A stretch of 52,728 bases of DNA, taken from IMG/VR virus record IMGVR_UViG_3300024520_000099, positions 1 to 52,728 of that record; one strand, 5' to 3'. Made by a program: the position numbers and the translations under genes. This document shows positions 4,855 through 26,669 of this stretch, piece by piece. Origin of the DNA: a virus (taxonomy: Duplodnaviria > Caudoviricetes). How positions within the stretch are numbered: position 1 is the stretch's first letter; the number at the start of each line of letters is the position of its first letter. Under the pieces are notes generated by a model. That model ran no database searches. It was not told where the DNA came from and saw only the letters and a list, made by a program, of their open reading frames with translations.

Positions 4855-5976
4855 ATGGAAACAAACAAGAAACGGTTCAAAGGGACATGGCTCCCGGCCG
4901 TGGTTCACCAGTATTTTGAGGACGGCAAGATCACCGCAATCGAGATGGTCTTGTTGTCCACCGTTGATGCCCTGTCGGATGAGGACGAGGGCTGCTACGC
5001 CAGCAATGAATGGCTTGCGGAGAAGCTACGAATGAAACCGAACAGCGTAGGCGACATGGTCTCGCGGCTCGTCAAAGTGGGTATGCTCCACAGGGAAGTC
5101 AAACGGGGACAACGTGGATCACGTCGGTGGCTACGAGTATGGTATGACCCCACTCCGGTTGAAACAGGAGTGCGCACTCCGGTGGCAGCAGGAGTGCTAC
5201 CCCTTCCTACGGAAGGGGATAATAGAACACAGGATGAGATGGTTTTGATTGGAGATGACATGAAGGGTTTCTTCGAACAGTTCGATCACCAAGAAAGCGA
5301 CTACGACCATCTCGCTCAGGCACTACACGACCAACTCAAATCACATGGACTACTGCCCAAGAAGTGGTCACTCCAGCGATGGGCGAACGACATCGGTATC
5401 GCGTTTCGCAGACACGACAATGCCCAAGAAGTGTTCACCCACTTGCTCGGTCACATCACCCATGAACGAATGCCAACGGTCAGGTCGGGGAAGAGCTTCA
5501 AAGAGAAGTTCGAGAACATCGAGCGGAACATGACCATCCTGCAGGCGGGCAACTGGTTCGCCATCCCCATCTCAGAACAAACGACCTCGCGACTCGAACG
5601 CCTACGGATGAAGCGATGGGAACATGGTAGCGACGACCATCTCGCTGCCGCTGTGGAGTTGAGCGAACAGGCGTACGGCCGGCTCCGAGTATCCATTGTC
5701 ACCTTCCACCAACGTTCACCAGCCAAGCTGAAGCGGCACAAGTACCGCGAGACATTGATGAACCAGATGGAGAACCTGCTGCTGCGATTGCCGCAACTGC
5801 TGGTGTCAAACTACTTCGATGCACTGCACAGCCGGCTCCACAACTGGGACGACTGGAGTGGGGACCTCAAGCCGTGGATACTGACCGGGGACAAACTCAT
5901 TGACGAGCTGAGACGGGTTCTCCCCATCTCCGACCAGCTCTGGGACATACTCGAAGGAGAGCTTGATGCGGATTGA
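4855..5976 (+). CDS. Replication initiator-like protein with N-terminal HTH
   Basis: GCYASNEWLAEKLRMKPNSVGDMVSRLVKVGML is typical of phage replication-protein HTH; sits between primase and helicase. Confidence 0.75.
   Translation: METNKKRFKGTWLPAVVHQYFEDGKITAIEMVLLSTVDALSDEDEGCYASNEWLAEKLRMKPNSVGDMVSRLVKVGMLHREVKRGQRGSRRWLRVWYDPTPVETGVRTPVAAGVLPLPTEGDNRTQDEMVLIGDDMKGFFEQFDHQESDYDHLAQALHDQLKSHGLLPKKWSLQRWANDIGIAFRRHDNAQEVFTHLLGHITHERMPTVRSGKSFKEKFENIERNMTILQAGNWFAIPISEQTTSRLERLRMKRWEHGSDDHLAAAVELSEQAYGRLRVSIVTFHQRSPAKLKRHKYRETLMNQMENLLLRLPQLLVSNYFDALHSRLHNWDDWSGDLKPWILTGDKLIDELRRVLPISDQLWDILEGELDAD
5151..5198. repeat. Two tandem 24-bp palindromic units CACTCCGGT-N5-CAGGAGTGC, candidate iterons/origin
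   Basis: cactccggttgaaacaggagtgcg and cactccggtggcagcaggagtgct, inside the initiator gene just after the HTH. Confidence 0.55.
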
Positions 5977-7357
5977 GAAACGTGACGGAGCACTAGCCCG
6001 TCGCATACTGACCGGCATGATCGTAGACAAGGTCGTGCTGGGTCACGTCGCGGCAGTGTGGGACAAGGAACTGTTCAAGTCCAAGTGGTGCAACCTCGTA
6101 GCCGGCTGGTGCGTGTCGTACTTTGAGAGGTACAACAAGCCACCCGGATCAGCCATCGAGAGCCGGTTCGAGAGCTGGGCCAGCAAGGGGCGTGACAAGG
6201 ACACGGTGAAACTGGTCGAGAAGTTCCTGGCTACGCTGAGCGAGGAGTACGAACACCACGCTGCCGAGATCAACGCTGCCTATCTGGTTGACCAAGCAGC
6301 AGAGCATTTCAACGAGGTCCGTGCCAAGCGGCTCGTTGATGAGATAACCGACGACCTCGAAACAGGGGAAGGCGTCAAGGCACTCGAACGCATTTCCAAG
6401 TTCGGTCACGTGGAAGTGGGTACGACCCACGGCGTCGACGTACTCAACGACCAAGGCGCGAGCCAAGAGGCCTTCGAGCAACAGAACGAAACGCTCATCA
6501 AGTACCCGCAAGCTCTCCAGCACTTCTTCGCCGACGCGTTCCAACGTGATTCGTTCGTGGCGTTCATGGGTCCCGAGAAGCGAGGCAAGACGTGGTGGTT
6601 GATCGACGTTGCATGGCGAGCGATGAAGCAGCGTCGCAAGGTCGCGTTCTTTTCAGTGGGTGACATGAGCCAGCACCAGATGATGCGACGCTTCCATGCG
6701 AGGGCTGCACGACGACCTCTGCGAGCGAAGACAGTGAAGGTGCCAACTGGTATCGAACACGACCCCGGCACACCGATTGCACTGGTCGATCGAGAAGACA
6801 AGGTATTCGACAAGCCGATGTCGTGGCGCATGGGATACAAGGCACTGCAACACCACGCGAAGAGCACCAAGACCAAGTCGACGTTGCTTCGCATGGCCTG
6901 CTACCCGAACAGTTCGATAAGTGTGACCGGTCTCGCCAGTGTGTTGACCGTCTGGGAGAACGCCGGGTGGATACCAGACATCATCGTTATCGACTACGCG
7001 GACATCCTCGCGAACCCGCCTGGCTTCAACGAGAGTCGCGACGCTACGAACGCCACGTGGAAGCACCTGCGACGGTTGTCTCAAGAGCGACACTGTTGCG
7101 TTGTCACCGCGACCCAAGCAGACGCCGCATCGTACCGAGCAGAGACCATCGACGCATCGAACTTCAGCGAGGACAAACGGAAGCTTGCCCACGTCACTGG
7201 CATGGTAGGCATCAACAGTACGCCCGACGAGAAAGAGGTCGGGTTGCAACGGTTGAATTGGGTGGTGCTCCGCGAGAGCGAGTTCAACGTCTCCAAGTGT
7301 GTTCACGTCGCTGGTTGCTTCGATATTGGCAACCCAGCAGTCAAATCCACGTTCTAG
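5966..7357 (+). CDS. dnaB: DnaB-like replicative helicase
   Basis: Walker A GPEKRGKT, FFSVGDM, Walker B VIDYAD, TATQAD, FSED. Confidence 0.85.
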   Translation: MRIEKRDGALARRILTGMIVDKVVLGHVAAVWDKELFKSKWCNLVAGWCVSYFERYNKPPGSAIESRFESWASKGRDKDTVKLVEKFLATLSEEYEHHAAEINAAYLVDQAAEHFNEVRAKRLVDEITDDLETGEGVKALERISKFGHVEVGTTHGVDVLNDQGASQEAFEQQNETLIKYPQALQHFFADAFQRDSFVAFMGPEKRGKTWWLIDVAWRAMKQRRKVAFFSVGDMSQHQMMRRFHARAARRPLRAKTVKVPTGIEHDPGTPIALVDREDKVFDKPMSWRMGYKALQHHAKSTKTKSTLLRMACYPNSSISVTGLASVLTVWENAGWIPDIIVIDYADILANPPGFNESRDATNATWKHLRRLSQERHCCVVTATQADAASYRAETIDASNFSEDKRKLAHVTGMVGINSTPDEKEVGLQRLNWVVLRESEFNVSKCVHVAGCFDIGNPAVKSTF

Positions 7358-13041: not shown

Positions 13042-13470
13042 ATGCAAACCAAAGCACACGTCTACGTTCGGACGACCTTCGAAGGCTACCATCGTTGGGC
13101 TGATGCCCCCGAAGCCGTGGCGTTCCTACGTCACTGGCACCGTCACTTGTTTCACGTTCAACTGGATGTCCACGTAGAGCACAACGACCGCGACGTTGAG
13201 TTCTTTATCTTGCAGCGAGAGTTGAACCGTTTCATCGACGATACGTTTCAACCACAGGGCCCCATGCGGTTCGAGTTCAGCTGCGAGATGATCGCGGAGC
13301 AAATCATCGCACACTTCCACGAGAAGCTTGAATACAAAGTTCATTCGTGTGAGGTCAGTGAGGACGGTGAAAATGGTGCAGTCGTTACGGTGGCCGGTCT
13401 CGCGGAGCAGATCCAAGAGACACTTGATGCTCGCGAGAGCTGGGAACGTGAACAACGGGAGTTTGAATGA
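13042..13470 (+). CDS. QueD-like T-fold protein (DpdL-type, putative CDG decarboxylase)
   Basis: FEGYHRW, LRHWHRHLF (LxxxHRHxF replacing CxxxHGH), DRDVEF, SCEMIAE, VSEDGENG. Confidence 0.75.
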   Translation: MQTKAHVYVRTTFEGYHRWADAPEAVAFLRHWHRHLFHVQLDVHVEHNDRDVEFFILQRELNRFIDDTFQPQGPMRFEFSCEMIAEQIIAHFHEKLEYKVHSCEVSEDGENGAVVTVAGLAEQIQETLDARESWEREQREFE

Positions 13471-13471
13471 C

Positions 13472-14644
13472 ATGGCGAAATCACAGAACAGAGCGATCTT
13501 CTATTGTCCGCTTGAAGCGTACAAAGAACGATACACGATGCAGCTCTCTGCTCCGGAGGTGGGCTGGCTCGAACGCAACTGGAGACAGGCGGGCATCACA
13601 TACGTCCGGGTTGAGGGTGACCGCCCACACGAACCGCAGAACATCACAACGGGTGTTGCCCTAGATGCCATCGGGCGATCGAAGATGTGCTTTGCTCAGG
13701 TGTCTAAGTTGCTCGACATGATGCCGGGCATGGGTGAAGACGACGTCATCTACTTCGATGACTTCTGGCACCCCGGCATTGAGGCGATCGCCTACGCTGC
13801 ACACATGATGAACCGTCCGCTGCCCAAGATGTACGCGAACCTCTGGGCACAGTCAGTGGACGAGTTCGATTTCACGTATGGGATGCGTGACTGGATGCGG
13901 TACTTCGAGAAGGGCTTTGGAACTCTGTTGAGTGGCATCTTTGTAGCGTGCCCTTCGCTCAAGGACCTCGTGGTCCATGGCGGTATCGCCCATCACGAGA
14001 AGGTCCATGCTGTGGGTCACCCGTTCTCCAGCGAAGAAGTCAAGTCGCGGATGCCTGAGCTTCCCGCTGACCGCGAAGACAAGGTCGTGTATTGCAGCCG
14101 GTGGGACCGCGAGAAGAACCCCGACTTCTTCCTGCGTGTGGTTGACACGGTACTAGCCGAACGACCCCACACTCAGTTCGTCGTGTGCTCCAGTCATGAG
14201 AAGCTCCGCTCGAACCACAGCCCTCTGCTCGGACTGCTCACCAAAGCCCGCAAGAAGCATGGTGACAAGCTCGTACTCATGGAAGGGTTGACGAAGGAAG
14301 AATACTACGCTGAACTCGCATCGGCGAAGGTCCACATCAATACCGCGGACCAAGACTGGATCAGCTTCGTACTGCTCGAAGCGAGCTGTGCGGGGGCGTA
14401 CCCTGTCTACCCATACTTCAGGTCGTTCCCAGAAGTGTTCGAGTACAAGCCCGACTTCATGTACCAACGGTTGCACGTCCCAAGTGCAGCTGCCGTGGTG
14501 AAGGGCGTGCTCGATGCGACCGACCTGTGGACCGAAGAGGCGATCCAATCCCGAGCGTGGGTACACGAGCGTTTCGACAACTCATGGGAACGTATGGCAA
14601 CAATCATGGGCGTGTATCAGGGAGACCAAAGTGGCCCGTTCTAA
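13472..14644 (+). CDS. GT-B (GT4-like) glycosyltransferase
   Basis: SRWDREKNPD, QDWISFVLLEASCAG (EX7E-like), RSFPE; start reassigned to ATG13472. Confidence 0.8.
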   Translation: MAKSQNRAIFYCPLEAYKERYTMQLSAPEVGWLERNWRQAGITYVRVEGDRPHEPQNITTGVALDAIGRSKMCFAQVSKLLDMMPGMGEDDVIYFDDFWHPGIEAIAYAAHMMNRPLPKMYANLWAQSVDEFDFTYGMRDWMRYFEKGFGTLLSGIFVACPSLKDLVVHGGIAHHEKVHAVGHPFSSEEVKSRMPELPADREDKVVYCSRWDREKNPDFFLRVVDTVLAERPHTQFVVCSSHEKLRSNHSPLLGLLTKARKKHGDKLVLMEGLTKEEYYAELASAKVHINTADQDWISFVLLEASCAGAYPVYPYFRSFPEVFEYKPDFMYQRLHVPSAAAVVKGVLDATDLWTEEAIQSRAWVHERFDNSWERMATIMGVYQGDQSGPF

Positions 14645-15617
14645 ACCAGTAAAGAAACAACGACGCAACCCGAAGCGGAAGCGTCGAGACGAAGGTGAAC
14701 GACCACCCGAGACCATCGGGTCGTTCTTCTTGGACAGTGGGGCTCACTCCCTGTTCAACATCTACGCTCACAACGTAGGTCAGCACGAGCGGTACGCCTT
14801 CTACGAGACCGATGACTTCTGGCAGTACGTCGACGACTACTGTGAGTTCGTCAAGGCGAACATCCACGCGATCGACTACTACGCCAACGTGGATGTGATC
14901 CACAACCCGAAGCTCAGTTGGAAGGTCCTCAAGTACATCGAGAAGGACCACGGTCTCAACCCTGTGCCAGTCGTTCACATGGGCACGGAAGTGAAGTGGC
15001 TCCGCCGACACTTGGACGCGGGCTATGACTACATCGGGCTGGGTGGTGTCGCATTGGAAGGCACGCGGACCAGCTACCTGCATTGGGCGGATCAGATGTT
15101 CGAGTGCATCTGCGATACCCCGGACCGAACACCGAAGGTCAAGGTTCATGGGTTCGCGATGACAGCCTATGCGAGTCTTGTCCGGTATCCGTGGTACTCC
15201 GTTGACTCGACATCGTGGGCTAAGGCCGGCGGGTTCGGGATGGTCTACTTCCCCAAGAAGATCAACGGTGAGTTCGTGTTCGTACCACCAGACCCGAACG
15301 ACTGGTCCCGGGTGAAGGCATACGAGCCATACAACCTGAGCTGCTCCGCCAACGCCCCCGCCGCTAAGAAGAAGGGGCAGTCGTACTTGTCGGTCTCCAG
15401 TGGAGCACAGAAGGTCCTCGCTGAGTGGCTCGAAAGTATAGACGTCCCCATCGGGACAGTTGACGAAGATTGTGAGATGCTTGAGTGGGGAGTGGTGAGC
15501 CATCACGCTGCCCGTAAGATTGCGAACCTCCGCTTCTTCGAACACCTCACCGCCGCACTACCTGATTGGCCGTGGCGATTCAAAGCAACTTCAGTGAAAG
15601 GGTTCGGGTTGATCTAA
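14631..15617 (+). CDS. dpdA: DpdA/TGT-family 7-deazaguanine DNA transglycosylase
   Basis: FFLDSGAHS, ANVDVI, PVPVVH, IGLGG, KVHGFAMT, YPWYSVDSTSW; GGAG SD before GTG14631. Confidence 0.82.
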   Translation: MARSKPVKKQRRNPKRKRRDEGERPPETIGSFFLDSGAHSLFNIYAHNVGQHERYAFYETDDFWQYVDDYCEFVKANIHAIDYYANVDVIHNPKLSWKVLKYIEKDHGLNPVPVVHMGTEVKWLRRHLDAGYDYIGLGGVALEGTRTSYLHWADQMFECICDTPDRTPKVKVHGFAMTAYASLVRYPWYSVDSTSWAKAGGFGMVYFPKKINGEFVFVPPDPNDWSRVKAYEPYNLSCSANAPAAKKKGQSYLSVSSGAQKVLAEWLESIDVPIGTVDEDCEMLEWGVVSHHAARKIANLRFFEHLTAALPDWPWRFKATSVKGFGLI

Positions 15618-15823
15618 TGCCACAGCCAAACAAGATGATCCTGTTCTACTCGGGCTCGACCTCGGGCGAGTCACTACCCGAACGGGTTCTGGAGCACAAC
15701 CAGCCTGGCGTCATGTTGACGTTCTGGGAGATGCACGAGAAACGAGGTGACACAATCCGTCGCTTCGAACGCCATGCCGCCAAACGAAAAGGAGTTGAAT
15801 CTGATGACGCAAGTCAACCGTGA
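15617..15823 (+). CDS. Small protein coupled to dpdA, resembling a DpdA N-terminal segment
   Basis: TAATG overlap; ILFYSG..ERVL..GVMLTFW. Confidence 0.6.
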   Translation: MPQPNKMILFYSGSTSGESLPERVLEHNQPGVMLTFWEMHEKRGDTIRRFERHAAKRKGVESDDASQP

Positions 15824-16820
15824 GGAACTACTCAATCAGCTTGAGAGCATCAAGCCGGGACTGTCACCCCGCGAGATCATTGAGCAATCGTCTTGCTTCG
15901 TGTTCGAAGACGGGAAGGTGATGACGTACAACGACGAGATCGCCTGCACGCAAGACAGTTGCCTGAAGATCACTGGAGCCGTGCAAGCGGAACCTCTGAT
16001 CGCAGTGCTCGCCAAGCTCCCCAACGACCAAGTCGAGATCGTCGAGGAAGGCAGCGAACTGAAGATCAAAGCCGGTAGGCGGGAGTCGGGTATTCGCCGA
16101 GAGGCGGAGGTCCTGTTGCCCATCGAGTCGGTGGAGAAACCCAAGAAGTGGCACAAGCTGCCTGAGGACTTCGGCGATGCGGTCTACATCGTGATGCAGT
16201 GTGCAGGACGAGACGAGTCGCAGTTCGTTATCACCTGTGTCCACATCACCAAGAACCACATCGAGGCGTGCGACAACTTCCAGCTCAGTCGCTACCCGAT
16301 GGAACTACCCATCCGCGGGAACTGCCTTGTGCGAGCCGACAGTCTCAAGCACGTCTGCGACCTCGACATGACCGAGTTCGCCGAGACCCAGACATGGGTT
16401 CACTTCCGCAACCCCACAGGGCTCGTTCTATCGTGTCGCAAAAGCATGGACGACTACCCAGACATTTCTCCGCTGCTCGACGTTGAGGGGGCGGCTACGA
16501 CGCTGCCAAAGGGACTGGCCGAGGCTACCCAGATGGCACAGATCTTCTCCAGCGAGAACGCGGACAACGACAGCGTCCTAATCAACCTGTCACCCAAGAA
16601 GGGCGGCATGCTCCGCGTCGCAGGGGAAGGCGCTTCCGGGTGGTATCGCGAGACCAAGAAGCTCAAGTACGTCGGCGAACCAATGAAGTTCCGCATCGCC
16701 CCGAAGTTGCTGATTGAGTTGACTAAGCGACACAACGAATGCGAGATCAGCAACGACCGCCTACTGGTGAACGGTGGCAAGTTCCGTTACGTCACATGCC
16801 TTGGAGCAGCCGATGAATAA
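15804..16820 (+). CDS. dnaN: DNA polymerase III beta-like sliding clamp
   Basis: About 338 aa; EACDNFQLS, DDYPDIS, three-domain pattern; DnaX gene nearby. Confidence 0.75.
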   Translation: MTQVNREELLNQLESIKPGLSPREIIEQSSCFVFEDGKVMTYNDEIACTQDSCLKITGAVQAEPLIAVLAKLPNDQVEIVEEGSELKIKAGRRESGIRREAEVLLPIESVEKPKKWHKLPEDFGDAVYIVMQCAGRDESQFVITCVHITKNHIEACDNFQLSRYPMELPIRGNCLVRADSLKHVCDLDMTEFAETQTWVHFRNPTGLVLSCRKSMDDYPDISPLLDVEGAATTLPKGLAEATQMAQIFSSENADNDSVLINLSPKKGGMLRVAGEGASGWYRETKKLKYVGEPMKFRIAPKLLIELTKRHNECEISNDRLLVNGGKFRYVTCLGAADE

Positions 16821-18033
16821 ACGCGGGTTCTTTGCAGGCTCGCAACTGGTGACCAAGGCCCCGATCGGGCTTCATCCCAAGTGTGGTGCCTGTGGTCTAC
16901 ACAAGAAATGCAACTCACCGAAACTACCTGTCGAGGGGAAGGGCGAACGCGGCATCATGGTAGTGGGTGAAGGTCCGTCCGCGGTGGAGGACGATGACGG
17001 GACACTGTGGGGTGACGCTGCTGGGAAGAAGCTACGAACACAACTGCAAATTCGTGGCATCGATCTCGATGAAGACTGCTGGTCAACCAAAGCCACAATC
17101 TGTCACACCACTGGAAAGCCCGGCGACGACATCACTGACTATTGCCGGCCGAACCTTACGAAGGCTATCAAGGAACGGAACCCGTCCGCGTTCTTGGTGC
17201 TTGGTGACTCAGCAGTACGCTCCCTGATTGGCGCCCTCTGGCGAGAGGCGCCAGGTTCAATCCACAAGTGGCAGGGCTGGACCATACCCTGCCAGAAGCT
17301 CAACGCCTGGATCCTACCAACGTTCAGGCCCGAGTTCGTTCTCAAGGAAGACAACCCTGTCCTGGACCAGATGTTCGAGGACACGTTGGAACGGTTGAGC
17401 GACATCGATGCTCGGCCGTTCGAGACACTACCAGATGAGAAGCGTGAGGTCGAACTGATACTGGACCCCGCCAAGGCAGCTCACATCATTCGCAAGATGA
17501 TCGAGAGGGGTGGCACAGTCGCATTCGACTACGAGACCAACATGCTGAAACCTGACAGTCCCGAAGCTACCATAGTGAGTTGCTCGGTCTGTTGGAACGG
17601 TAAGAAGACAATTGCATTCCCATGGCTCGGTGAAGCTATCACCGCCACCCGCGAATTGCTCCGCTCACCATTGGCCAAGATCGCAAGCAACTTGAAGTTC
17701 GAGGAACGGTGGACCCGTAGACTACTCAAGACGCGGGTTCGGAATTGGTGGTGGGACACAATGGTTGCCGCTCATGTGATCGACAACCGTCCTGGTATCA
17801 CCAGCATCAAGTTCCAGTCGTTCGTGCTACTTGGCTCGGACATCTGGGATGACCATGTTAGTCAGTTTTTGCATACGAAGGAGGGTTCGGGAGACGTCAA
17901 CCAGATACTCGAACAGGTCGATCTAAATGACCTGCTACTCTACAACGGGCTCGACAGTTTGCTCGAGTACCGTGTCGCGGAGAAGCAGATGAAGCACCTC
18001 AAGTACCCACTGCCCAAAGGGATGAAGAAATGA
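16813..18033 (+). CDS. Family-4 UDG-like domain fused to PolA 3'-5' exonuclease (N-terminal half of split polymerase)
   Basis: CGAC, IMVVGEGP, GDAAGKKL, YCRPNL; ExoI AFDYET, ExoII SNLKFE, DTMVAAH, ExoIII YNGLD. Confidence 0.85.
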   Translation: MNKRGFFAGSQLVTKAPIGLHPKCGACGLHKKCNSPKLPVEGKGERGIMVVGEGPSAVEDDDGTLWGDAAGKKLRTQLQIRGIDLDEDCWSTKATICHTTGKPGDDITDYCRPNLTKAIKERNPSAFLVLGDSAVRSLIGALWREAPGSIHKWQGWTIPCQKLNAWILPTFRPEFVLKEDNPVLDQMFEDTLERLSDIDARPFETLPDEKREVELILDPAKAAHIIRKMIERGGTVAFDYETNMLKPDSPEATIVSCSVCWNGKKTIAFPWLGEAITATRELLRSPLAKIASNLKFEERWTRRLLKTRVRNWWWDTMVAAHVIDNRPGITSIKFQSFVLLGSDIWDDHVSQFLHTKEGSGDVNQILEQVDLNDLLLYNGLDSLLEYRVAEKQMKHLKYPLPKGMKK

Positions 18034-18647
18034 AACAGTACGACGCACTTCAACGCGAAGTAGGACCGTGGAGCGTAGCCAACTTCGGCGACCAGGAATC
18101 GCCGTTCTTCTTGCTCAAGATGGAGCCGTTCCCGCCCGACTGGAAAGTCAACCACCCTATGCCACCGACGATGGTTTGCATGGGGAGCTTGGCTCCGCTC
18201 ATGGGTATCGTGGAAGAACTCGGAGAGCTGGCAGAGACCAAGGTGACCGCTGACCTCGAGGACGCTCTCGGAGACGTGTTCGTTTACCTGTGTGACTACT
18301 GCCACCGTGAAGGGTTCACACTACCCATCGGGCGACATCTCAAGTTCCAACTCGAGCCGCCGAACCTGGACGCGTTCGCGGGGATGATCGCCTACATCGG
18401 GAAGCTCTACCACGGCTGTCTGAAACGACATCAAGGCATTCGCGGGTTCGACAACGACGAGACATGGGAAGCTCACCGCAACTACTGTGTTGCCATGCTA
18501 CTCGTGTACATGCAGAAGTTCGCGGACGAGACACTCAACGAACGACTACTGGTCATCGCCAACAAGACGTGGACCAACGTGGTCCAGAAGCGAGACTGGA
18601 AGAAGTCGCCAACAGATGGTGGAGGTTTTGACCACTATGCGAATTGA
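18030..18647 (+). CDS. MazG-like nucleotide pyrophosphohydrolase
   Basis: GIVEELGELAE, LEDALGDVFVYL, WTNVVQKRDW. Confidence 0.75.
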   Translation: MKQYDALQREVGPWSVANFGDQESPFFLLKMEPFPPDWKVNHPMPPTMVCMGSLAPLMGIVEELGELAETKVTADLEDALGDVFVYLCDYCHREGFTLPIGRHLKFQLEPPNLDAFAGMIAYIGKLYHGCLKRHQGIRGFDNDETWEAHRNYCVAMLLVYMQKFADETLNERLLVIANKTWTNVVQKRDWKKSPTDGGGFDHYAN

Positions 18648-20004
18648 AGCAGCCACGCCCGAAGCGTACCGACTGTTCCACGATGGCGTCATAGCGTTCG
18701 CCGGCGTTGAGGAGAACGGTATTCGCATTGACACTGATTACCTTGACAATGAGATCACCCGCACCAAACGCCGCATCAAGAAGGGCGAAGATCATCTCAA
18801 GAAGTCAGATGTCTGGAAGGCGTGGAAGAAACGATTCGGTGGCAAAGCGAAGCTCGGTTCGAAGCCACAACTGGCGACCATGTTCTTTGATGAGATGGGC
18901 TATGTCCGTAGCGAAACTGGCAAACAACAAGATGAGGCAGCTTTCTCCAACGTCGACCACCCGTTCATCAAGAACTACTTCAAAGTCGAGAAGCTGAAGA
19001 AGGTCGTTGGGACATACCTCACTGGCATACGTCGTGAGGTGGTAGGTGACCGAGCCCACGTCTTTTTCAACCTGCACACTGTGAAGACCTACCGCGGAAG
19101 TGCCGACCGGTTCTCGTACCAGAACCTGCCAATACGAAACCCTGAAATGGGTGGCATCGTACGCAAGGCGTTCATCCCAAGCGACGGTCACGTCCTGGTT
19201 GAGATCGACTACTCGGGCCTCGAGTTCACCATGGCTGGGGCAATCACCAAGTGCCCACAGGTCAACCGATACATCGTGGAAGGCGGAGACCCGCACCGCG
19301 ACATGGCGGCACTCGTGTTCAAGTGCGAGCAAGACGAAGTCTCCAAGCAGATGAGGTACTGTGGGAAGAACCAGTTTGTCTTCCCCCTGCTGTACGGTTC
19401 TTACTACCGTTCTGTCGCTCCGGTACTTTGGTCGTCCATGGCTACGATGGACCTGAAGATAGGCGATGCGGGGCTGCTCGATCGCTTCGCGGGGATGGGC
19501 ATAGATGAGCTTGGAGACTTGGACCCACGCACCACCCATCCCGGGACATTCGAGCACCACATGAAGGAGTGCGAGAAGGAGTACACACAGAAACGGTTCA
19601 AGCAGTGTTTCGCGAATCAACGGAAGGCGTACGAGACCTATCGCAAGACCGGCCGTGTCGAGTTCGTCACAGGGTTCCAGGCTAGTGGGATGATGAGTCG
19701 TAACGACGTCTACAACTGGCGCATTCAAGGGCCGGCGTTTCACTGCCTACTGTGGTCAATGATCAAGCTTCACAACTGGCTGGTGAAGTCCAAGTTCAAG
19801 TCAATGATCGTGGGCCAGATCCACGACAGTATCATCGCAGACGTTCACGTAGACGAACTCGAAGACTACCTGTCTTATGCCAGGTATGTCATGACGCAAG
19901 AGATCCGCGAGCATTGGAAATGGCTATGCGTGCCCCTCGATGTTGAAGCGGAAGTCACACCCGAAGGCGGCACGTGGAATGACAAGAAGGTCCACCAGAT
20001 ATGA
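18637..20004 (+). CDS. polA: Family A DNA polymerase, polymerase domain only
   Basis: GIRID, YQNLP, motif A EIDYSGLE, motif B R..GKNQFVFPLLYG, IQGPA, motif C QIHDSI. Confidence 0.92.
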   Translation: MRIEAATPEAYRLFHDGVIAFAGVEENGIRIDTDYLDNEITRTKRRIKKGEDHLKKSDVWKAWKKRFGGKAKLGSKPQLATMFFDEMGYVRSETGKQQDEAAFSNVDHPFIKNYFKVEKLKKVVGTYLTGIRREVVGDRAHVFFNLHTVKTYRGSADRFSYQNLPIRNPEMGGIVRKAFIPSDGHVLVEIDYSGLEFTMAGAITKCPQVNRYIVEGGDPHRDMAALVFKCEQDEVSKQMRYCGKNQFVFPLLYGSYYRSVAPVLWSSMATMDLKIGDAGLLDRFAGMGIDELGDLDPRTTHPGTFEHHMKECEKEYTQKRFKQCFANQRKAYETYRKTGRVEFVTGFQASGMMSRNDVYNWRIQGPAFHCLLWSMIKLHNWLVKSKFKSMIVGQIHDSIIADVHVDELEDYLSYARYVMTQEIREHWKWLCVPLDVEAEVTPEGGTWNDKKVHQI

Positions 20005-20756
20005 GACTTGACACAGTACAAACTGAACGCGGCACGTTCGTAGTCCCCACTGAACGCTCAACACCATCGTTCAACACGAAGGTGAGGGCGGGTGGCTTTG
20101 AGTTGGAGAAACTGGACTGGTTCATGCACTACGCGACCAAGCACTACGGACCACGGGCCGGTCCGTTCATCGACGTAGGAGCCCACATCGGCACCACGGC
20201 AATTCCAGTAGCCATGATGGGGCACGAGGTCATAGCCATTGAGCCTGACCCACTATTGGTCGCGTGTCTCGCTGCGGGTGCATGGCTGTCGGGTGTCGAG
20301 CACAAGGTCCACATCAACCAAGCGGCAGCCCATAGCGATACCGAGAACGTCACCCTCCAACTGAACCCGCACCACGCCGGTGACAACCGTATCAAGGGAC
20401 CAGCGAACCCCGACGCAGAGAAGTGGGAATCGATTGAGGTCAGGACCGTTGTGTTGAACGACTGCATTGATCTACCTGGCTGGATGTGGATCGACGCACA
20501 GGGCCACGAAGCCCACGTCCTCGACGGTGGCAGTGTGTACGTCGGACGGGTGCCACTGTTCATGGAGTTCTTCCCACCACACATGAGCGAACCCTCGCAT
20601 CTGTTTGAAACACTGCAAGCCGCGTACCGCCACTTCATCGAATACGGAACTGACCTCGTACGACCAACGTCCCACTTGCCCACGCTCTACGCTGAGATGG
20701 TAGCGAAGGTGAAGAAGACCCCGAACATTCACACTGACCTGTTCTTCATAGGGTGA
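20001..20756 (+). CDS. FkbM-family SAM methyltransferase
   Basis: FIDVGAHIG, AIEPDP, WIDAQGHEAHVLDG, MEFFP. Confidence 0.88.
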   Translation: MRLDTVQTERGTFVVPTERSTPSFNTKVRAGGFELEKLDWFMHYATKHYGPRAGPFIDVGAHIGTTAIPVAMMGHEVIAIEPDPLLVACLAAGAWLSGVEHKVHINQAAAHSDTENVTLQLNPHHAGDNRIKGPANPDAEKWESIEVRTVVLNDCIDLPGWMWIDAQGHEAHVLDGGSVYVGRVPLFMEFFPPHMSEPSHLFETLQAAYRHFIEYGTDLVRPTSHLPTLYAEMVAKVKKTPNIHTDLFFIG

Positions 20757-20759
20757 CCC

Positions 20760-21002
20760 ATGACACAAGACGACAAAGACAAACAACGGAAACAGACCAA
20801 GCAGATGCACGACCTCGAGCAGGCGACCGCGACGATGGGCGAGATGTACCCGCCCCTCTGGCGCAACATCTACGTTCGCCTGAAGGAGGAAGGGTTCACA
20901 GAGCAGCAAGCGATGTCGATTCTCAAGGTCTACATCATGGCGAACTGCTCCGCGAATGGCATCTGGGTCAATGGCACTGAAACCCCGGACAAAGAACCAT
21001 GA
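20760..21002 (+). CDS. Hypothetical protein
   Basis: IYVRLKEEGFTEQQAMSIL; tight packing with neighbours. Confidence 0.65.
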   Translation: MTQDDKDKQRKQTKQMHDLEQATATMGEMYPPLWRNIYVRLKEEGFTEQQAMSILKVYIMANCSANGIWVNGTETPDKEP

Positions 21003-21343
21003 GCGAAAAGACACTGCCACTACGGGCGATCACGTACCAGCCCGTCGCAATGGGAACGTGCCCCGCATGCGAACTACCAGACGTGCCCATACGATTTGTC
21101 TTCAACCCATACGGTCCCGACGATCTGCTGTGTGTCCCCTGTGGAGACGCGAGGGATGCAGAGTTCGCGGAGCACCAACATCCCGACCAACCACACACGC
21201 CACATCCAGCCAGTGAAGCGGCTCGCGAATTGGGTGACGTGTTCTCGACGTTCCGAGATAACCTTGTCAAGAAGTATGGAGCCGACTCGGACAAGGTGAA
21301 ACGATATGACGGCACCCTCAAAGGAGACCAAGACGATGGATGA
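20999..21343 (+). CDS. Hypothetical Zn-finger protein
   Basis: CPAC..CVPC; ATGA overlap. Confidence 0.55.
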   Translation: MSEKTLPLRAITYQPVAMGTCPACELPDVPIRFVFNPYGPDDLLCVPCGDARDAEFAEHQHPDQPHTPHPASEAARELGDVFSTFRDNLVKKYGADSDKVKRYDGTLKGDQDDG

Positions 21344-22259
21344 TGTACTTTATCTGAAGCACCGACCCACTACGTTCAAGGCGGTGGTGGGACAACCCGA
21401 CGCAGTGAAGACCCTGGCTGCGATGGCGAAGAAACGGGTCTTCCCACACGCACTCGCGTTCTTCGGTGACAGTGGTTGTGGGAAGACCACGATGGCTCGC
21501 ATCACTGCGACGAAGCTCAAGTGTGGGAAGGCAGACTTCACAGAGGTCAACGCGGCGGAGTCACGCGGGATCGACATGGTTCGCCAGATCCAGAAACGTA
21601 TGGGCTTGTCACCCATCGCAGGGCCGGTTCGTGTGTGGCTCATTGACGAGTGCCACCAACTCACCGCGGAAGCTCAGGGTGCGTTTCTCAAGCTCCTGGA
21701 AGACACCCCCAAGCATGTCTACTTCATGCTGTGTACCACCGACCCACAGAAGTTGAAGACCACCATCAAGACGCGGTGCACCAAGATCGTTGTCAAACCA
21801 GTGAAGTCGCGAGACATGACCATACTGGTTGAGCGGGTTGCCAAGGTTGAGGGTATCACTCTCAATGAAGAGGTCACCGAGAAGATCGTTGAGTGTGCAG
21901 AAGGCTCGTGCCGGCAAGCACTGGTTTCGTTGAACGCGATCATGGGTATGGACGACCCTGAAGAGATGCTCGACGCGGTCTCTAGTGCTGACGTTGAAGC
22001 TGATGCGTTCGACCTAGCCAAGATGCTGATGAACGCCAAGTGTCAGTGGAATACGGTTGCCAAGAAGCTCAAGGAACTCGACGAACACGACCCCGAAGGC
22101 ATTCGTCGAATGGTGATGGGGTTCGCACGCGGATGTCTACTTGGGAAGGGCAACCACGAACGCGCATACAATGTCCTCGCATCGTTCGAGAACAACTTCT
22201 TCGACAGCGGCAAGGCTGGGCTGGCGAGGGCATGTTACGAAGTGGTGAAAGGGCTGTAG
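21336..22259 (+). CDS. dnaX: Clamp loader, DnaX (gamma/tau)-like AAA+ ATPase
   Basis: LKHRP..VVGQ, GDSGCGKTT, NAAESRGID, IDECHQLT, FLKLLED, TRC. Confidence 0.92.
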   Translation: MDDVLYLKHRPTTFKAVVGQPDAVKTLAAMAKKRVFPHALAFFGDSGCGKTTMARITATKLKCGKADFTEVNAAESRGIDMVRQIQKRMGLSPIAGPVRVWLIDECHQLTAEAQGAFLKLLEDTPKHVYFMLCTTDPQKLKTTIKTRCTKIVVKPVKSRDMTILVERVAKVEGITLNEEVTEKIVECAEGSCRQALVSLNAIMGMDDPEEMLDAVSSADVEADAFDLAKMLMNAKCQWNTVAKKLKELDEHDPEGIRRMVMGFARGCLLGKGNHERAYNVLASFENNFFDSGKAGLARACYEVVKGL

Positions 22260-22262
22260 CCC

Positions 22263-22277
22263 GTCCCGATAATACCA
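22263..22277 (+). promoter_or_regulatory. Recurrent motif GTCCCGATAATACCA
   Basis: Upstream of AGGAGG SD and ATG22294. Confidence 0.55.
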
Positions 22278-22293
22278 GCCAGGAGGACCAGCA

Positions 22294-22812
22294 ATGGCCA
22301 AAAGCAGAGCAGACCGAACGACGGAGAAGCAGGACGACTTCAGCTTCTTCGACATCGACGAACACAACCTGGACCGTGAGTGGGTCGAGCAACCTTCCCT
22401 CTACTTCAAGTGGGCCCGAAAGGTCGCCGATGCTCGCATGGTATTGGACGAAGCGAAAGCCGAGGTCGATGTGACCAAGGCAGAAGTCAGTCGCCTCATA
22501 CGCGACGACCCTGAAGACTTCGGATTGGAGAAGGTGACCGAGGCCGCTGTGACTGCCGCCATACCCGAGCACCCCGATATGATGCGGGCTGTGAAGGCAC
22601 TCAGCAAAGCGAAGCACGACGTCGATATCTACCAAGCCGCAGTGAATGCGTTGGACCACAGGAAGCGAGCACTCGAGAAGCTTGTGGACCTGCACGGCCA
22701 GAACTACTTCTCATCACCCAAAGCACCAGACCAAGACTCAGCCGCTTCGCTCGAGGAGAGTGGCAAACAACAGACGAGGCGAAAAGGTCGCCGCAACAGA
22801 GACGCTGAGTAG
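22294..22812 (+). CDS. UvsY-like recombination mediator (coiled coil)
   Basis: IDEHNLDREWVEQPSLY, KVTEAAV, ALDHRKRALEKL; adjacent to SSB and RecA. Confidence 0.55.
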   Translation: MAKSRADRTTEKQDDFSFFDIDEHNLDREWVEQPSLYFKWARKVADARMVLDEAKAEVDVTKAEVSRLIRDDPEDFGLEKVTEAAVTAAIPEHPDMMRAVKALSKAKHDVDIYQAAVNALDHRKRALEKLVDLHGQNYFSSPKAPDQDSAASLEESGKQQTRRKGRRNRDAE

Positions 22813-22818
22813 TTGATG

Positions 22819-22832
22819 GTCCCGACAGTACC
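22819..22832 (+). promoter_or_regulatory. Recurrent motif GTCCCGACAGTACC
   Basis: Upstream of the SSB gene. Confidence 0.55.
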
Positions 22833-22870
22833 GCAGGACCACTTCACAACCCCTAAAGAGGATTGAACTG

Positions 22871-24139
22871 ATGGCGAAAAGAACATCTGGCAAGCGGAAG
22901 CGTGTCAGCGGTAAGAAGCGAGCACAGGAGCACAAGAGCGGGTTCGATCGAACAGCGATCAACGTGCCCGATGGCTGTGACCTGTTCTCGCTCGGCAAGG
23001 AAGGCACGAAGCGGATTGAGATTGTCCCCTTCACTGCTGGAGCGGACAACCCATACGCCGACAAGGGCGAACTCCACTACGAGCGAACGTTCTTCACGCA
23101 TCGTGGTATCGGAGCCAGCGAGGACACCTACATCTGCCCGAAGAAGACGTGGGGCAAGAAGTGTCCGATCTGCGAGGCGAAGGCGAAGCTCTCCCAAGAC
23201 CCGGACGCCGACGAGGATGCGGTGAAGGCGCTCAAGTGGAGCGAGCGTCAGTTGTTCAACGTGTTCGATCATGGCGATCCCGACAAGGGTCTCCAGTTGT
23301 GGGACTTCACCTTCCACTGGTTCGGCAAGTTGCTCGACGCTCGTATCAAGAACCAGGAAGAGGACGACGAGTACGAATTCTTCGCCGACCCCGAAGACGG
23401 TTTCACCTTGAGACTGACCATCGAGGAATCGGATTTTGCGAAGGGCAAGTTCGAGGTCTCCGCGATCGACTTCAAGGCTCGCAAGAAACCGTTGGACGAG
23501 GAGCTGCTCGAGGCCGCTCTGATTCTCGACGACCTGCTGATCGAAGTTCCGTACGACAAGCTCAGCGACATCTTTCTCCAAGTCGACGGCCCCGATGAGA
23601 AGACGGGTGACGATGACGACGACGACGACGAGCCCGCAAAGAAGCCGCGGACCCGGAAGCCGAAGCCCTCATCCACCACCACCAAGAAGGGCGGTGGCAA
23701 GAAGCCCCCAAAGAAGGAGCCCGAACCGGAGGAGGACGAGGACGATGAAAGCTTCGACGCCGACGCAGACGGCGACTTCGAGGAGGATGAACCGGACGCC
23801 GACGAAGACGCCGGGGATGACTCTGACGGGGATGATGACGGCGACGATGATTGGGATGATGACGAAGGCGATGGCGACGGAGACGATTCGGATTCGGATG
23901 ATGACGGAGACGATGACGACCCCGATGGGGACGCCGCTGACGATACGGACGACGACGATGACGACGATTGGGACGACGACGACGACGTCCCTTTTGAAGA
24001 AGATGACGACGAAGAGCCCGACGAGGAACCGGCACCCAAGAAGAGCCGGTCGAGATCCTCGAAGTCGTCATCGAAGAAGGGCAAAGCATCAGGTTCGACA
24101 AAGAAACCGAGCCGGAGCCGGTCCCGCTCAAGCAAGTAA
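22871..24139 (+). CDS. gp32-like single-stranded DNA-binding protein with very long acidic tail
   Basis: H..YICPKKTWGKKCPICE zinc motif, FFADPEDG, D/E-rich C-terminus. Confidence 0.75.
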   Translation: MAKRTSGKRKRVSGKKRAQEHKSGFDRTAINVPDGCDLFSLGKEGTKRIEIVPFTAGADNPYADKGELHYERTFFTHRGIGASEDTYICPKKTWGKKCPICEAKAKLSQDPDADEDAVKALKWSERQLFNVFDHGDPDKGLQLWDFTFHWFGKLLDARIKNQEEDDEYEFFADPEDGFTLRLTIEESDFAKGKFEVSAIDFKARKKPLDEELLEAALILDDLLIEVPYDKLSDIFLQVDGPDEKTGDDDDDDDEPAKKPRTRKPKPSSTTTKKGGGKKPPKKEPEPEEDEDDESFDADADGDFEEDEPDADEDAGDDSDGDDDGDDDWDDDEGDGDGDDSDSDDDGDDDDPDGDAADDTDDDDDDDWDDDDDVPFEEDDDEEPDEEPAPKKSRSRSSKSSSKKGKASGSTKKPSRSRSRSSK

Positions 24140-24172
24140 GAAGGGTGACCGGAGTTGACGACGTGACCCGAG

Positions 24173-24204
24173 ATGACGCCGCCCTTTTCCGGGGCGGCGT
24201 TGTC
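24173..24204 (+). terminator. GC-rich stem-loop after SSB
   Basis: GACGCCGCCC-TTTTCC-GGGGCGGCGTT. Confidence 0.55.
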
Positions 24205-24239
24205 GTAGGGGACAACCACACAACCACAGGAGAGAGAAC

Positions 24240-25343
24240 GTGACAGACGACGACACAGGAGACGTGAAAGCGAAGCTACGGACCAAAGCCAAACGTCCCA
24301 AGCCGGTGGCTGGTGCAAAGCTCTTGTCCAGTGGCTCCACACTGCTCGACCTAGGCTGCTCAGGTTCACCACGAGGGGCGTATGCGAAGGGTCAGTACAT
24401 CTTCTTTGTCGGCGACAGTGATAGCGGCAAGACGTGGTACTCGATGACCCTGTTCGCCGAAGCAGCACGCAACAAGAAGTTCGACGACTACGACTTCATC
24501 TACGACCCAGCCGAGGGCGGGGCACAGATGGACATTGAATACTACTTCGGCGAAGACGTAGCAGACCGGCTCCAAGCACCACAGGAGAACGAAGACGGTG
24601 ATGGGGTCGCATCCGCGTTCGTGGAGGACTTCTACATCAACCTTGACCGTCGCTTGGACAGTGGGGTTCCCTGCATCTACGTGCTCGATTCCATGGATGC
24701 TCTCAACCCCCGCATAGCCGATGAGAAGTTCGAGGACGACCGCGATGCTATCGAGGCGGGGAAGGAAACGGGTGGCACGTATGGGACCGACAAAGCGAAG
24801 CTGAACTCGAACAACCTACGTCGGGTCATTCCCAAGCTCCGCGAGACTGGTTCTATCCTGGTCATCATCTCACAGACCCGGGACAACATCGGGTTCGGTG
24901 CACAGTACAACCCCAAGACGCGGGGCGGTGGTAGGGCACTCAAGTTCTACGCTGACATTGAGATCTGGACGAGCGTCAAGGGCGGTATCGCTAAGACTGT
25001 TCGCAAGAAGAAACGACACGTTGGCAACCTGTCGCTATGCAAGGTGAAGCGTAGTCGCCTGACCGGTCGCAAGGCCGAGGTCATTGTCCCGTTCTACCAT
25101 GAGCACGGCATAGACGATGTGGGGTCGTGTATCGAATACCTGATCGACGAAGGCCACTGGACCAAGCCCAAAGGCAAGAAGGTATTCGAGGCACCCGAGT
25201 TCGAGTTCACAGGGCAGGAAGAGAAGCTCATCCAGCTCATCGAGGAAGAAGGTCGCGAGAGGGAACTCAAGATTCTCGTGGGCACCGTATGGAAGGAAGT
25301 CCTTGAAGCATCCCGCGTGAAAAGGAAGCGTCGTTATGAGTGA
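24240..25343 (+). CDS. recA: RecA/UvsX recombinase
   Basis: SSGSTLLD, GDSDSGKT, VLDSMDAL, ISQTRD, GGRALKFYA. Confidence 0.92.
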   Translation: MTDDDTGDVKAKLRTKAKRPKPVAGAKLLSSGSTLLDLGCSGSPRGAYAKGQYIFFVGDSDSGKTWYSMTLFAEAARNKKFDDYDFIYDPAEGGAQMDIEYYFGEDVADRLQAPQENEDGDGVASAFVEDFYINLDRRLDSGVPCIYVLDSMDALNPRIADEKFEDDRDAIEAGKETGGTYGTDKAKLNSNNLRRVIPKLRETGSILVIISQTRDNIGFGAQYNPKTRGGGRALKFYADIEIWTSVKGGIAKTVRKKKRHVGNLSLCKVKRSRLTGRKAEVIVPFYHEHGIDDVGSCIEYLIDEGHWTKPKGKKVFEAPEFEFTGQEEKLIQLIEEEGRERELKILVGTVWKEVLEASRVKRKRRYE

Positions 25344-25770
25344 GTGGAACCAAGCCCAAGACGAGGTCATGCTGCTCATGGTCTTACAAGCCCAGACCAA
25401 GAACCAGTATCAACGAGCCCTTGCGAAAGTCGCCGACAAGCTTCGCAAGGGTGAAGAAGAACACCACGGAGGGTCCAGGACAAAGCGACGTGATGGAGAC
25501 CCATGTCGTAGACGTCTGTGGGGCCTGGCGGTACGCGCCGTCGAGTACCCTGGACCCTCCGTGGCACGTACAAGCCGTGAAGGCTTTGACTGGTCGTGGG
25601 CTGAGTTGCTGGTTCTCAAGTGGGCGTTCACCGAGCAACCCAAGCAAGCAGACGGCAAGCCTGCACCCGACAATGAGTACATCGCCTCGCTCTTGTACCG
25701 GACAGTTGACGAGGTCCGGGAGAAGCGGGGACTCGACAGACCCGAGACCAAAGGATTCGGAATATTATGA
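25336..25770 (+). CDS. Hypothetical protein ending in KGFGIL
   Basis: Overlaps both neighbours; WSWAELLVL..IASLLYRTVDEV is Myb/HTH-like. Confidence 0.65.
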   Translation: MSEWNQAQDEVMLLMVLQAQTKNQYQRALAKVADKLRKGEEEHHGGSRTKRRDGDPCRRRLWGLAVRAVEYPGPSVARTSREGFDWSWAELLVLKWAFTEQPKQADGKPAPDNEYIASLLYRTVDEVREKRGLDRPETKGFGIL

Positions 25771-26669
25771 ACAAGTGGCTCATCCTCGACTGCTCATACC
25801 TGTGCCACCGTGCAATGCACACCACAGGCCAGCTGACGTTCGGCGACGTGAAGACGGGCATCATCTTTGGGTTCCTACGAGACATCGGGACCCTGTGTTC
25901 GTACCACGACACCCAACGGATCGCATTCTGCTTTGACTCGACCAAGAGCAAGCGACGAGAACTCTACGAACCGTACAAGCAAGCCCGTCGTGAGAAGTAC
26001 GAACAGATGGACGAGGAAGAGGCAAAGATCTGGACTGAGTTCAGGGCACAAGTACAGAAGCTCCGACGCGAGTATCTACCCGCCATAGGCTTCAACAACA
26101 TCTTCGTTCAACGCGGCCACGAAGCTGACGACATCATAGGTAGCCTGTGCTTGGAGACGCTGCCACAAGACGGCTCAGAGGGTGTGATTATCGCCAGTGA
26201 CCACGACCTATTCCAGTTGCTCGGTCCACTGGTGACAATGTGGAACCCGAACAAGAAGCAGTTCTACACAGCAGCTGACTTCAGGCGTGAATGGGGCATT
26301 GGGCCTGAGCGGTGGCACGAGGTCAAAGCCTTCGCTGGTTGCAGTGGTGATGGTGTCGAGGGCATCCCCGGCGTTGGTGAGAAGACAGCAGCCCGTTGGC
26401 TCAAGGGTGAAGTGAACCCAAAGCACAAAGTGCATGACAAGATACTCGGTGGGATGAAGACGTACACACGCAACGTGCCATTGGTCAGGTTGCCGTTCGA
26501 GGGGACAAAGGTCTTCGAACTGGTAGACGACGATGTCACCAAAGACAAGTGGAACGCCGTGTGCCAAGAGTTGGGCATGACCAGCCTAGAGGGAGTGGAC
26601 CTAGGACCCGACGTCAGGAGACGCGGGGTGAAGCCCAAGAACAAGCGAAAAGGATTTGGCCTGACATGA
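25767..26669 (+). CDS. 5'-3' exonuclease / flap endonuclease
   Basis: LILDCSY, CFDS, YKQAR, EADDII, SDHDLFQL, GIPGVGEKTA (H3TH). Confidence 0.92.
   Translation: MNKWLILDCSYLCHRAMHTTGQLTFGDVKTGIIFGFLRDIGTLCSYHDTQRIAFCFDSTKSKRRELYEPYKQARREKYEQMDEEEAKIWTEFRAQVQKLRREYLPAIGFNNIFVQRGHEADDIIGSLCLETLPQDGSEGVIIASDHDLFQLLGPLVTMWNPNKKQFYTAADFRREWGIGPERWHEVKAFAGCSGDGVEGIPGVGEKTAARWLKGEVNPKHKVHDKILGGMKTYTRNVPLVRLPFEGTKVFELVDDDVTKDKWNAVCQELGMTSLEGVDLGPDVRRRGVKPKNKRKGFGLT

Follow-up and report, generated by a model that had tools for sequence, protein, structure and literature searches.

The window analysed here is the whole of a 52.7-kb virus record (IMG/VR record IMGVR_UViG_3300024520_000099, 52,728 nucleotides, estimated to be 66% complete, 57% GC), in which nearly all genes lie on the + strand and three proteins end in nearly the same short peptide. 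Pfam and PHROG searches of the window proteins placed the finding within a module of replication and DNA-modification genes. The dpdA gene (14631..15617, +, GTG start) encodes a DpdA-like DNA guanine transglycosylase of 328 amino acids (phrog_887, 2e-36) and is followed by the gene of a DnaN-like sliding clamp of 338 amino acids (15804..16820, +; phrog_947, 4e-29), the proposed receptor of the peptide. Next to the clamp gene lie the two parts of a split family-A DNA polymerase: a subunit with UDG-like and 3′-5′ exonuclease domains (UDG-exo; 16813..18033, +; PF03167, 9e-10, and PF01612, 8.5e-5) and the catalytic subunit (18616..20004, +, ATG at 18616; PF00476, 5e-40). A cognate AAA+ clamp-loader subunit is encoded at 21306..22259 (+; PF13177, 2e-23). 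Further downstream are open reading frame (ORF) 25336 (25336..25770, +), coding for a 144-residue protein that has a floppy tail and two helical repeats weakly resembling Myb/SANT, and a 5′-3′ flap exonuclease gene (FEN; 25767..26669, +; PF02739, 1.3e-24, and PF01367, 3e-7). ORF 4855 (4855..5976, +; PF01325, 6e-5, below the cut-off) encodes a winged-helix protein, an initiator or helicase-loader candidate.

DpdA, the ORF 25336 product and FEN share the C-terminal peptide KGFG(L/I) followed by a single last residue, as the original prediction had claimed. DpdA ends in SVKGFGLI (KGFGLI at 15597..15614, with the stop codon to 15617), the ORF 25336 product in ETKGFGIL (KGFGIL at 25750..25767, with the stop to 25770) and FEN, behind a basic linker, in KRKGFGLT (KGFGLT at 26649..26666, with the stop to 26669), all three on the + strand; the positions given in that prediction cover KGFGxx plus the stop codon, and the preceding V, T or R sits 3 nt upstream. 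Two related peptides were also found where they had been announced, at the start of UDG-exo, MNKRGFF (16813..16833, +, from the ATG at 16813), and within ORF 4855, where MKGFF (5260..5274, +) lies in a variable linker. The catalytic polymerase subunit itself has no terminal motif. A GGAG lies 6 nt upstream of the UDG-exo ATG, and a GGGAG upstream of the dpdA GTG. The internal ATG of MKGFF in ORF 4855 (5246-5262) has a GGAG 5 nt upstream, and a shorter isoform starting with the motif is conceivable. The three tails are written in different codons (AAA GGG TTC GGG TTG ATC in dpdA, AAA GGA TTC GGA ATA TTA in ORF 25336 and AAA GGA TTT GGC CTG ACA in the FEN gene), so their likeness lies at the protein level, and a DNA repeat as its source was ruled out.

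When ORFs of at least 30 amino acids in all six frames were considered, [KR]GF within the last 10 residues was restricted to these three ORFs. Among + strand ORFs of at least 80 amino acids, 4 of the 8 GF[FG] triplets stood at a protein end. Only 3 of 20000 composition-preserving shuffles had at least 3 of the 58 window proteins sharing any 4-mer within the last 7 residues, as did 9 of 20000 draws in which random 7-residue windows were taken from inside the proteins.

Conservation of the motif in orthologues and its co-occurrence with a phage clamp, both proposed as checks in the original prediction, were found in the material described below, the former for DpdA, FEN, ORF 25336 and the polymerase subunit. 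The dpdA start codon at 14631 is the same as in the database protein P0001. An AlphaFold 2 model of DpdA, built on a 64-sequence alignment, had a pLDDT of 90.4, and all 50 listed PDB matches of this model were tRNA-guanine transglycosylases or the bacterial DpdA 7ui4 (rank 8), with probabilities of 0.94-1.00, TM scores of about 0.4 and E-values of 2e-3 to 1e-2, none reaching 1e-3. Tails were read in the best 120 of 835 DpdA homologues. GF[FG] was present within the last 10 residues of 44 of these 120 proteins, vs 1.7% of internal 10-residue windows, and the wider pattern G[FL][FGL] in 66, vs 5.0% of internal windows; K or R preceded the G in 40 of the 66. A WPW-like element was present in 114 of the 120 homologues. 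Block means of pLDDT in the DpdA model were 93-98 for residues 241 to 320, and the last 8 residues had a mean of 60.

Among 107 FEN homologues, 19 carried GF[FG] in the last 10 residues, compared with 0.3% of internal windows; the basic linker is present in these 19, among which are 9 of the 13 closest homologues, and most homologues lacking the motif stop soon past the conserved LGMxSL. In UDG-exo the peptide is N-terminal. A start of the form M-x(0-4)-GFF was found in 11 of 13 first-round orthologues, with one GFD and one protein having nothing of the kind, and 43 of the 61 unique N-termini from all loci matched [MVL]x(0-6)G[FLMW]F, the remainder showing mostly xFF or xLF beside the start. 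This motif is followed by a variable linker of 15-25 residues. The M..G(F/L)F peptide of the UDG-exo subunit is the sole conserved terminal peptide of the polymerase, an enzyme that needs a processivity factor. For ORF 4855, close relatives were not found among viral contigs, and orthologues were taken from related loci: of the 15 rows that are not gapped at the aligned position, 13 have G/x-(F/L)-hydrophobic and 2 do not, in a linker whose alignment is otherwise gap-rich.

The third tailed protein, that of ORF 25336, belongs to no Pfam or PHROG family, and Pfam-A likewise placed neither DpdA nor the clamp in a family at E 0.01. Its sole database homologue (56% identity) ends in SKGFGLI. An iterative profile search within the related loci gave a family of 9 members, 6 of which have a KGFG, KGFF or NFGV tail. 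The two repeats of the family are of the W..E..L / W..RE.D.L...YIA..L.R..EV kind, and the AlphaFold 2 model made from the 9 sequences had a pLDDT of 81.4 and a pTM of 0.76, with residues 134-144 below 50. Pfam Myb matches under the cut-off (E 0.06-0.12) were obtained for 2 of 6 relatives, and none for ORF 25336 itself even at E 10; Myb-type Atlas feature scores of 0.79-0.84 were taken as leads only. A Foldseek search with the model returned 0 matches at E 1e-3, so the Myb reading stays a lead; the top weak matches were spliceosome chains (probably of the Myb-domain protein CDC5L), followed by c-Myb and a Trichomonas Myb. ORF 25336 probably encodes a small helix-turn-helix DNA-binding protein.

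Further carriers were sought in 104 related loci among + strand ORFs of at least 60 amino acids with G[FL][FGL] no more than four residues from the stop. The matches include 28 DpdA and 3 FEN proteins and small ORFs at the position of ORF 25336. DNA methyltransferases were also among the carriers, namely an N6/N4 methylase ending in QQGFGL, an MT-A70 protein ending in KGLGL and an FkbM methylase ending in RRGLFY, together with three proteins that have a CxxCxxCC domain and end in GFGL or GLGL, whose genes are close to the clamp gene and in two cases come directly after it. One related locus, L035, repeats the trio of the window, with DpdA ending in EGFGFNE, the ORF upstream of FEN in GAGFGFSG and FEN in PRGFF. 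In the window, the FkbM-type methyltransferase (20001..20756, +; PF05050, 2.5e-8) has the hydrophobic xDLFF-type end HTDLFFIG, and its relative in L035 ends in KRRGLFY; there is a weak possibility that this enzyme is a further client with a candidate variant of the docking peptide.

The clamp itself is only distantly related to cellular DnaN. A profile of 104 relatives matched PDB β clamps at E 5e-7 over profile positions 41-306 of 336, and the family comprises 2922 representative relatives at E 1e-3. P235 is the only invariant column among the 104 sequences; it lies within yPDlsellk (YPD), which aligns to the bacterial connector FPDYERVLP (FPDY). In the β clamp of E. coli the FPDY connector (P242, R246, V247) lines the peptide cleft. 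A complex prediction with two clamp copies and the last 30 residues of FEN scored 0.21 and 0.02 against a mark of 0.32, in a single run without controls that we count neither for nor against docking.

To describe the linkage of dpdA to the clamp gene, 80 loci were gathered by DpdA alignment, 78 of them with a complete DpdA ORF. Of those 78, 73 have a clamp ORF after dpdA (median gap 288 bp, maximum 2628 bp), and in the remaining 5 the DNA ends no more than 1188 bp beyond dpdA. Of 5 listed loci with xLF and not GFF on the polymerase, 4 have L at the first hydrophobic place of the DpdA tail, a comparison of small numbers among related loci, two of them near-identical, that we did not count as evidence. 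In a few loci the dpdA frame continues into the clamp ORF and has no motif at its end (L001, 797-2110, on the same contig as L056; L085/L086, 9872-11116; L077, 747-1916), and these fused frames may be frameshifts or sequencing errors. L001 has, in the +1 frame, an ORF (1668-1856) that overlaps the 3′ part of dpdA and ends in IPKGFTTKT. Tandem DpdA paralogues were observed upstream of the clamp gene in L003 (1955-3004 and 2970-4016, and also in L002), in L036 and in L061; neither protein of the L003 pair is tailed, and in the L061 pair one ends in TRGFL and the other has no tail.

Sixteen cultured phages, from 175 tblastn matches, were examined with the same clamp profile, which detected a clamp in 13. 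The clamp gene is preceded by dpdA in every one of the 13, at a distance of 0 to about 1.4 kb; in all 10 phages whose annotated region extends far enough, a DNA polymerase gene comes after it. DpdA has a hydrophobic, motif-related tail in each of the 13, mostly of the form (Q)x(L/F)F: MELF in yong3 and CAjan, IQELF in NP1 and Vid5, IQGLF in VspDsh_1, QRLF in RHph_Y55, PELF in Me-ZS1, QGFF in Sulfitobacter phage M39, LQDLFDE in 9g, QGLFV in BcepGomr, GKLF in Bacillus phage Flasso, PVLF in Synechococcus Yong-L2-223 and QSLW in Edwardsiella phage ZHS. Ten of the 11 polymerase N-termini read in these phages fit M..G(F/L/M)FW(E/Q/D), the 11th, that of ZHS, having VSFF. The clamp profile had no match in the actinophages Bipper, Megan and PenguinLover67, PF02768 being negative too for Bipper and Megan, and none of the four DpdA proteins of these three clamp-less phages (Megan has two DpdA genes) showed a motif-like tail. 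Tail and clamp thus occurred together in 13/13 clamp-encoding phages, vs 3/3 clamp-less phages without the tail.

Bacterial proteins bind the β clamp through a QL[S/D]LF pentapeptide or a QLxLxL hexapeptide, which is C-terminal in Pol II and Pol IV, N-terminal in Hda and internal in Pol III α. The window peptide resembles this motif in being short and hydrophobic, in its position within disordered termini or linkers, in the kinds of protein that carry it (polymerase, nuclease, initiator-type and DNA-modifying), in being present on the replicative polymerase of the same genome (MNKRGFF of UDG-exo) and in having as candidate receptor a three-domain DnaN-type clamp. In our own alignment GFF corresponds to the S/D-L-F end of the pentapeptide and F-G-L to the L-G-L end of the hexapeptide. 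Unlike the consensus, K-G-F-G-[LI]-x and R-G-F-F have K/R-G in place of Q-L, favour F over L and are preceded by basic residues; and unlike the bacterial system, the clamp is phage-encoded, only distantly related to cellular DnaN, and the clients would include DpdA. The DpdA tails of relatives form a continuum, from the near-canonical QDLF, QELF and QGLF (9g, NP1, VspDsh_1) through QGFF (M39) to KGFF and KGFGL, which argues that the window peptide is a flavour of the clamp-binding motif and not a separate invention.

These observations lead us to propose, with a probability of about 0.6, that (K/R)GF(G/F) serves as a short linear motif for docking and represents the flavour that the bacterial β-clamp-binding motif takes in this lineage. 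A peptide that is terminal, predicted to be disordered, conserved across protein families and linked in the genome to a clamp gene most likely hooks its enzymes to the phage's own sliding clamp, as far as the receptor can be judged from sequence. The original prediction had described a private (K/R)GF motif, differing from QL(S/D)LF and from the PIP box. A distinct basic flavour was indeed found, with no Q, no first L and no PIP spacing, but the hydrophobic half fits the clamp-binding motif, and the gradation from QxLF to KGFGL speaks against a wholly separate code.

The proposed receptor site would be the hydrophobic cleft of the DnaN-like clamp, for which the peptide would keep the x-hydrophobic-F or hydrophobic-G-hydrophobic half of the clamp-binding motif and lose the leading Q-L. 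The phage clamp loader would place the clamp on primed DNA, and the polymerase would hold it through the N-terminal GFF of UDG-exo. DpdA, FEN, the Myb-like protein and, in relatives, the methylases would then take turns on the same cleft via their tails, with DpdA swapping guanine for 7-deazaguanine on fresh duplex behind the fork and flap removal by FEN and methylation likewise taking place on the new duplex just behind it. Docking on the clamp would presumably raise the efficiency of modification by DpdA. That such tethering would also distinguish phage from host DNA, as in the original prediction, is speculation.

A phage precedent is the T4/RB69 clamp gp45, whose clients are the tail of the gp43 polymerase and the late-transcription factors gp33 and gp55. 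As in T4, the phage-encoded clamp proposed here would serve as a tool-belt for several phage proteins via terminal peptides, and the small tailed DNA-binding or regulatory protein of ORF 25336 recalls gp33 and gp55. The two systems differ in that gp45 is a PCNA-like trimer whose ligands have acidic-hydrophobic tails, whereas the window encodes a DnaN-like clamp and a basic-hydrophobic peptide. In eukaryotes, FEN1 and DNMT1 are PIP-box clients of PCNA. Our proposal is similar in that a flap nuclease and a DNA-marking enzyme would ride the clamp via a terminal peptide beside a basic stretch, but the clamp family is different and the QxxLxxFF pattern is absent here; the PIP box was rejected as an identity of the motif, its spacing occurring neither in the three tails nor in the N-terminal peptide of UDG-exo. 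T4 DNA ligase appears as a further gp45 client in the part of the literature consulted (PMC6212786).

The DpdA gene neighbourhood is like that of phage DpdA systems described for DpdA1-4 in the main texts of PMC6884629, PMC10516641 and PMC10484667, with an enzyme of the tRNA-guanine transglycosylase fold beside FolE, QueD-like and radical-SAM genes, and the order QueC/D-FolE-DpdA-clamp-polymerase matches that of Queuovirinae. The insertion of 7-deazaguanine is called post-replicative in the main texts of PMC10516641 and PMC10484667, and published work of this kind regards DpdA as a free enzyme. The word "clamp" occurs 0 times in the main texts of these three papers, and "C-terminal" is never tied to DpdA there; their supplements, which lie outside this scope, may hold tail alignments. 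A clamp-tethered, replication-coupled mode is not proposed in those main texts, and titles and abstracts on DpdA with sliding clamps, or on Queuovirinae with clamps, contain nothing on such a link. The large differences in modification level between DpdA subfamilies are left unexplained in the published DpdA work, as far as these texts go.

Several observations weigh against docking on the phage clamp. We infer the binding of the peptide from sequence; it has neither the Q nor the first L of QL[SD]LF, and glycines flank it, so that its receptor may be a different one. The motif is missing from 88 of the 107 FEN homologues, and 22 of the 64 unique DpdA tails of clamp-linked loci fit none of three patterns, several of these being partial (RGFH, MGF, ELGL at the end) or frameshifted-looking. 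In the cultured relative ZHS, DpdA has no more than a QSLW end, and FEN bears no such peptide. The adjacency of dpdA and the clamp gene may reflect one conserved replication module. The clamp-less controls are three mutually related actinophages with divergent DpdA, and therefore presence and absence of the tail are confounded with phylogeny. Finally, a 2025 preprint (10.64898/2025.12.06.692756), in the portion available to us, reports that T4 glucosyltransferases do not bind gp45, contrary to an older claim, the clamp binding of the α-glucosyltransferase not being reproduced; this outcome is a warning that links between modification enzymes and clamps need experiments.

The peptide might instead be aimed mainly at the host β clamp, or at both clamps, with phage clients hijacking the host machinery. 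Near-canonical bacterial motifs on the DpdA of 9g, NP1, Vid5 and VspDsh_1 would suit this possibility, and phage Mu appears in the literature, as partly consulted, as a user of the host clamp. We consider it unlikely, because the phages have a clamp of their own in 13 of 13 tailed cultured genomes and 73 of 78 loci, mostly beside dpdA, and because the flavour of the motif shifts jointly on polymerase and DpdA between lineages, from acidic xLF/GLFW in Queuovirinae to basic KGFF/KGFG here, as fits a co-evolving phage receptor. The receptor could also be another phage hub, such as a gp32-like single-stranded DNA-binding protein (SSB), a RecA/UvsX-like recombinase, a DnaB-like helicase or the clamp loader. 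All these candidate genes are within the same module, and the departure of the motif from QL[SD]LF leaves room for a receptor other than the clamp. SSB hubs, however, work inversely, their acidic tail docking on partners, and several of the gp32-like relatives end in DDDWDxDW-type acidic-aromatic tails that match this arrangement, as in cellular SSB. Moreover, hydrophobic ends behind basic linkers on polymerase, FEN, methylases and initiators are typical of sliding-clamp clients, as far as the consulted part of PMC9690074 goes, and we regard another hub as quite unlikely.

It is very unlikely, in our view, that the tails are intrinsic to each enzyme, as DNA-contacting or self-regulating ends that became alike by convergence and share no partner. 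The DpdA tail does trail the conserved WPWPF element packed on the fold (residues 311-320, pLDDT 93) and could be an extension of it. On the other hand, the same peptide is N-terminal in one family, C-terminal in at least 6 unrelated families and located in the linker of another; it is always found where the sequence varies or the model has low confidence, and many homologues of each family do without it. This combination is the signature of a portable linear motif, and in the models the peptide behaves as one, on ends predicted to be floppy. A chance resemblance of three short tails, which a motif of only 4-5 residues might invite, is hardly credible given the shuffling and internal-window results and the conservation in orthologues. 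A degron or a packaging signal was rejected as well, neither accounting for a peptide that occurs only on replication proteins and at either terminus. Under the favoured reading of clamp docking, the motif is carried by proteins at work on replicating phage DNA: the C-termini of DpdA, FEN and the Myb-like protein, the N-terminus of UDG-exo, the linker of the initiator-like protein and, in relatives, DNA methyltransferases and CxxC proteins.

A wider hypothesis, which we hold only tentatively, is that hypermodification is physically coupled to the replisome across a very large phage clade, comprising cultured Queuovirinae (including 9g and CAjan) and the uncultured group with DpdA, clamp, UDG-exo and PolA. 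DpdA and several methyltransferases would ride the phage DnaN-like clamp via a terminal peptide that changes its flavour in co-evolution with the clamp of each lineage, giving a code partly insulated from the host clamp; the tailed Myb-like protein would link the clamp to gene regulation, as gp33 and gp55 do in T4, and tail and clamp together could set the modified fraction of the genome. If this were true, the so-called post-replicative insertion of 7-deazaguanine would really be co-replicative and take place on the clamp, and the tail would be a means of directing DpdA to new phage DNA and of setting how efficiently it works. The list of bacterial-type clamp clients would grow by DpdA, phage methyltransferases and a small DNA-binding protein, and the basic KGF(G/F) flavour would widen the sequence definition of the clamp-binding motif used in annotation. 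The E. coli phages 9g and CAjan have the same kind of DpdA tail and dpdA beside the clamp gene, which makes the idea directly testable.

The remaining genes of the module are described here for completeness. A DnaB-like helicase gene lies just downstream of ORF 4855 (5963..7357; PF03796, 5e-6, 26.5 bits vs a 27-bit cut-off), an SNF2 helicase is encoded among the genes upstream of the module, and the module further includes a UvsY-like protein, RuvC and two radical-SAM genes (QueE-like). The preQ0-pathway neighbours of dpdA are FolE (12077-13009; PF01227, 7e-73, match at residues 133-308), the two radical-SAM genes and a QueD-like ORF (13042..13470) assigned by eye only; QueC was not identified in the window. 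The FolE protein has about 130 additional N-terminal residues, including a FIIDDIVDSGAT stretch that appears to resemble phosphoribosyltransferase motifs. A glycosyltransferase-like ORF (13472-14644; PF13692, 3e-5, below the cut-off) lies between the QueD-like gene and dpdA; its product could further decorate the base or the DNA, and an orthologue was found in one relative (L001). The gp32-like SSB (22871-24139; PF08804) contains a very long acidic low-complexity region (DDDDVPFEEDD), followed by a basic end rich in S, K and R. The RecA/UvsX-like protein (24240-25343) ends in VKRKRRYE, with KRKRRYE, KRKSRYE, KRKPRYE, GRKRRYE and KRKKRYS at the corresponding place in related loci, and this end is a second conserved terminal peptide in the module.

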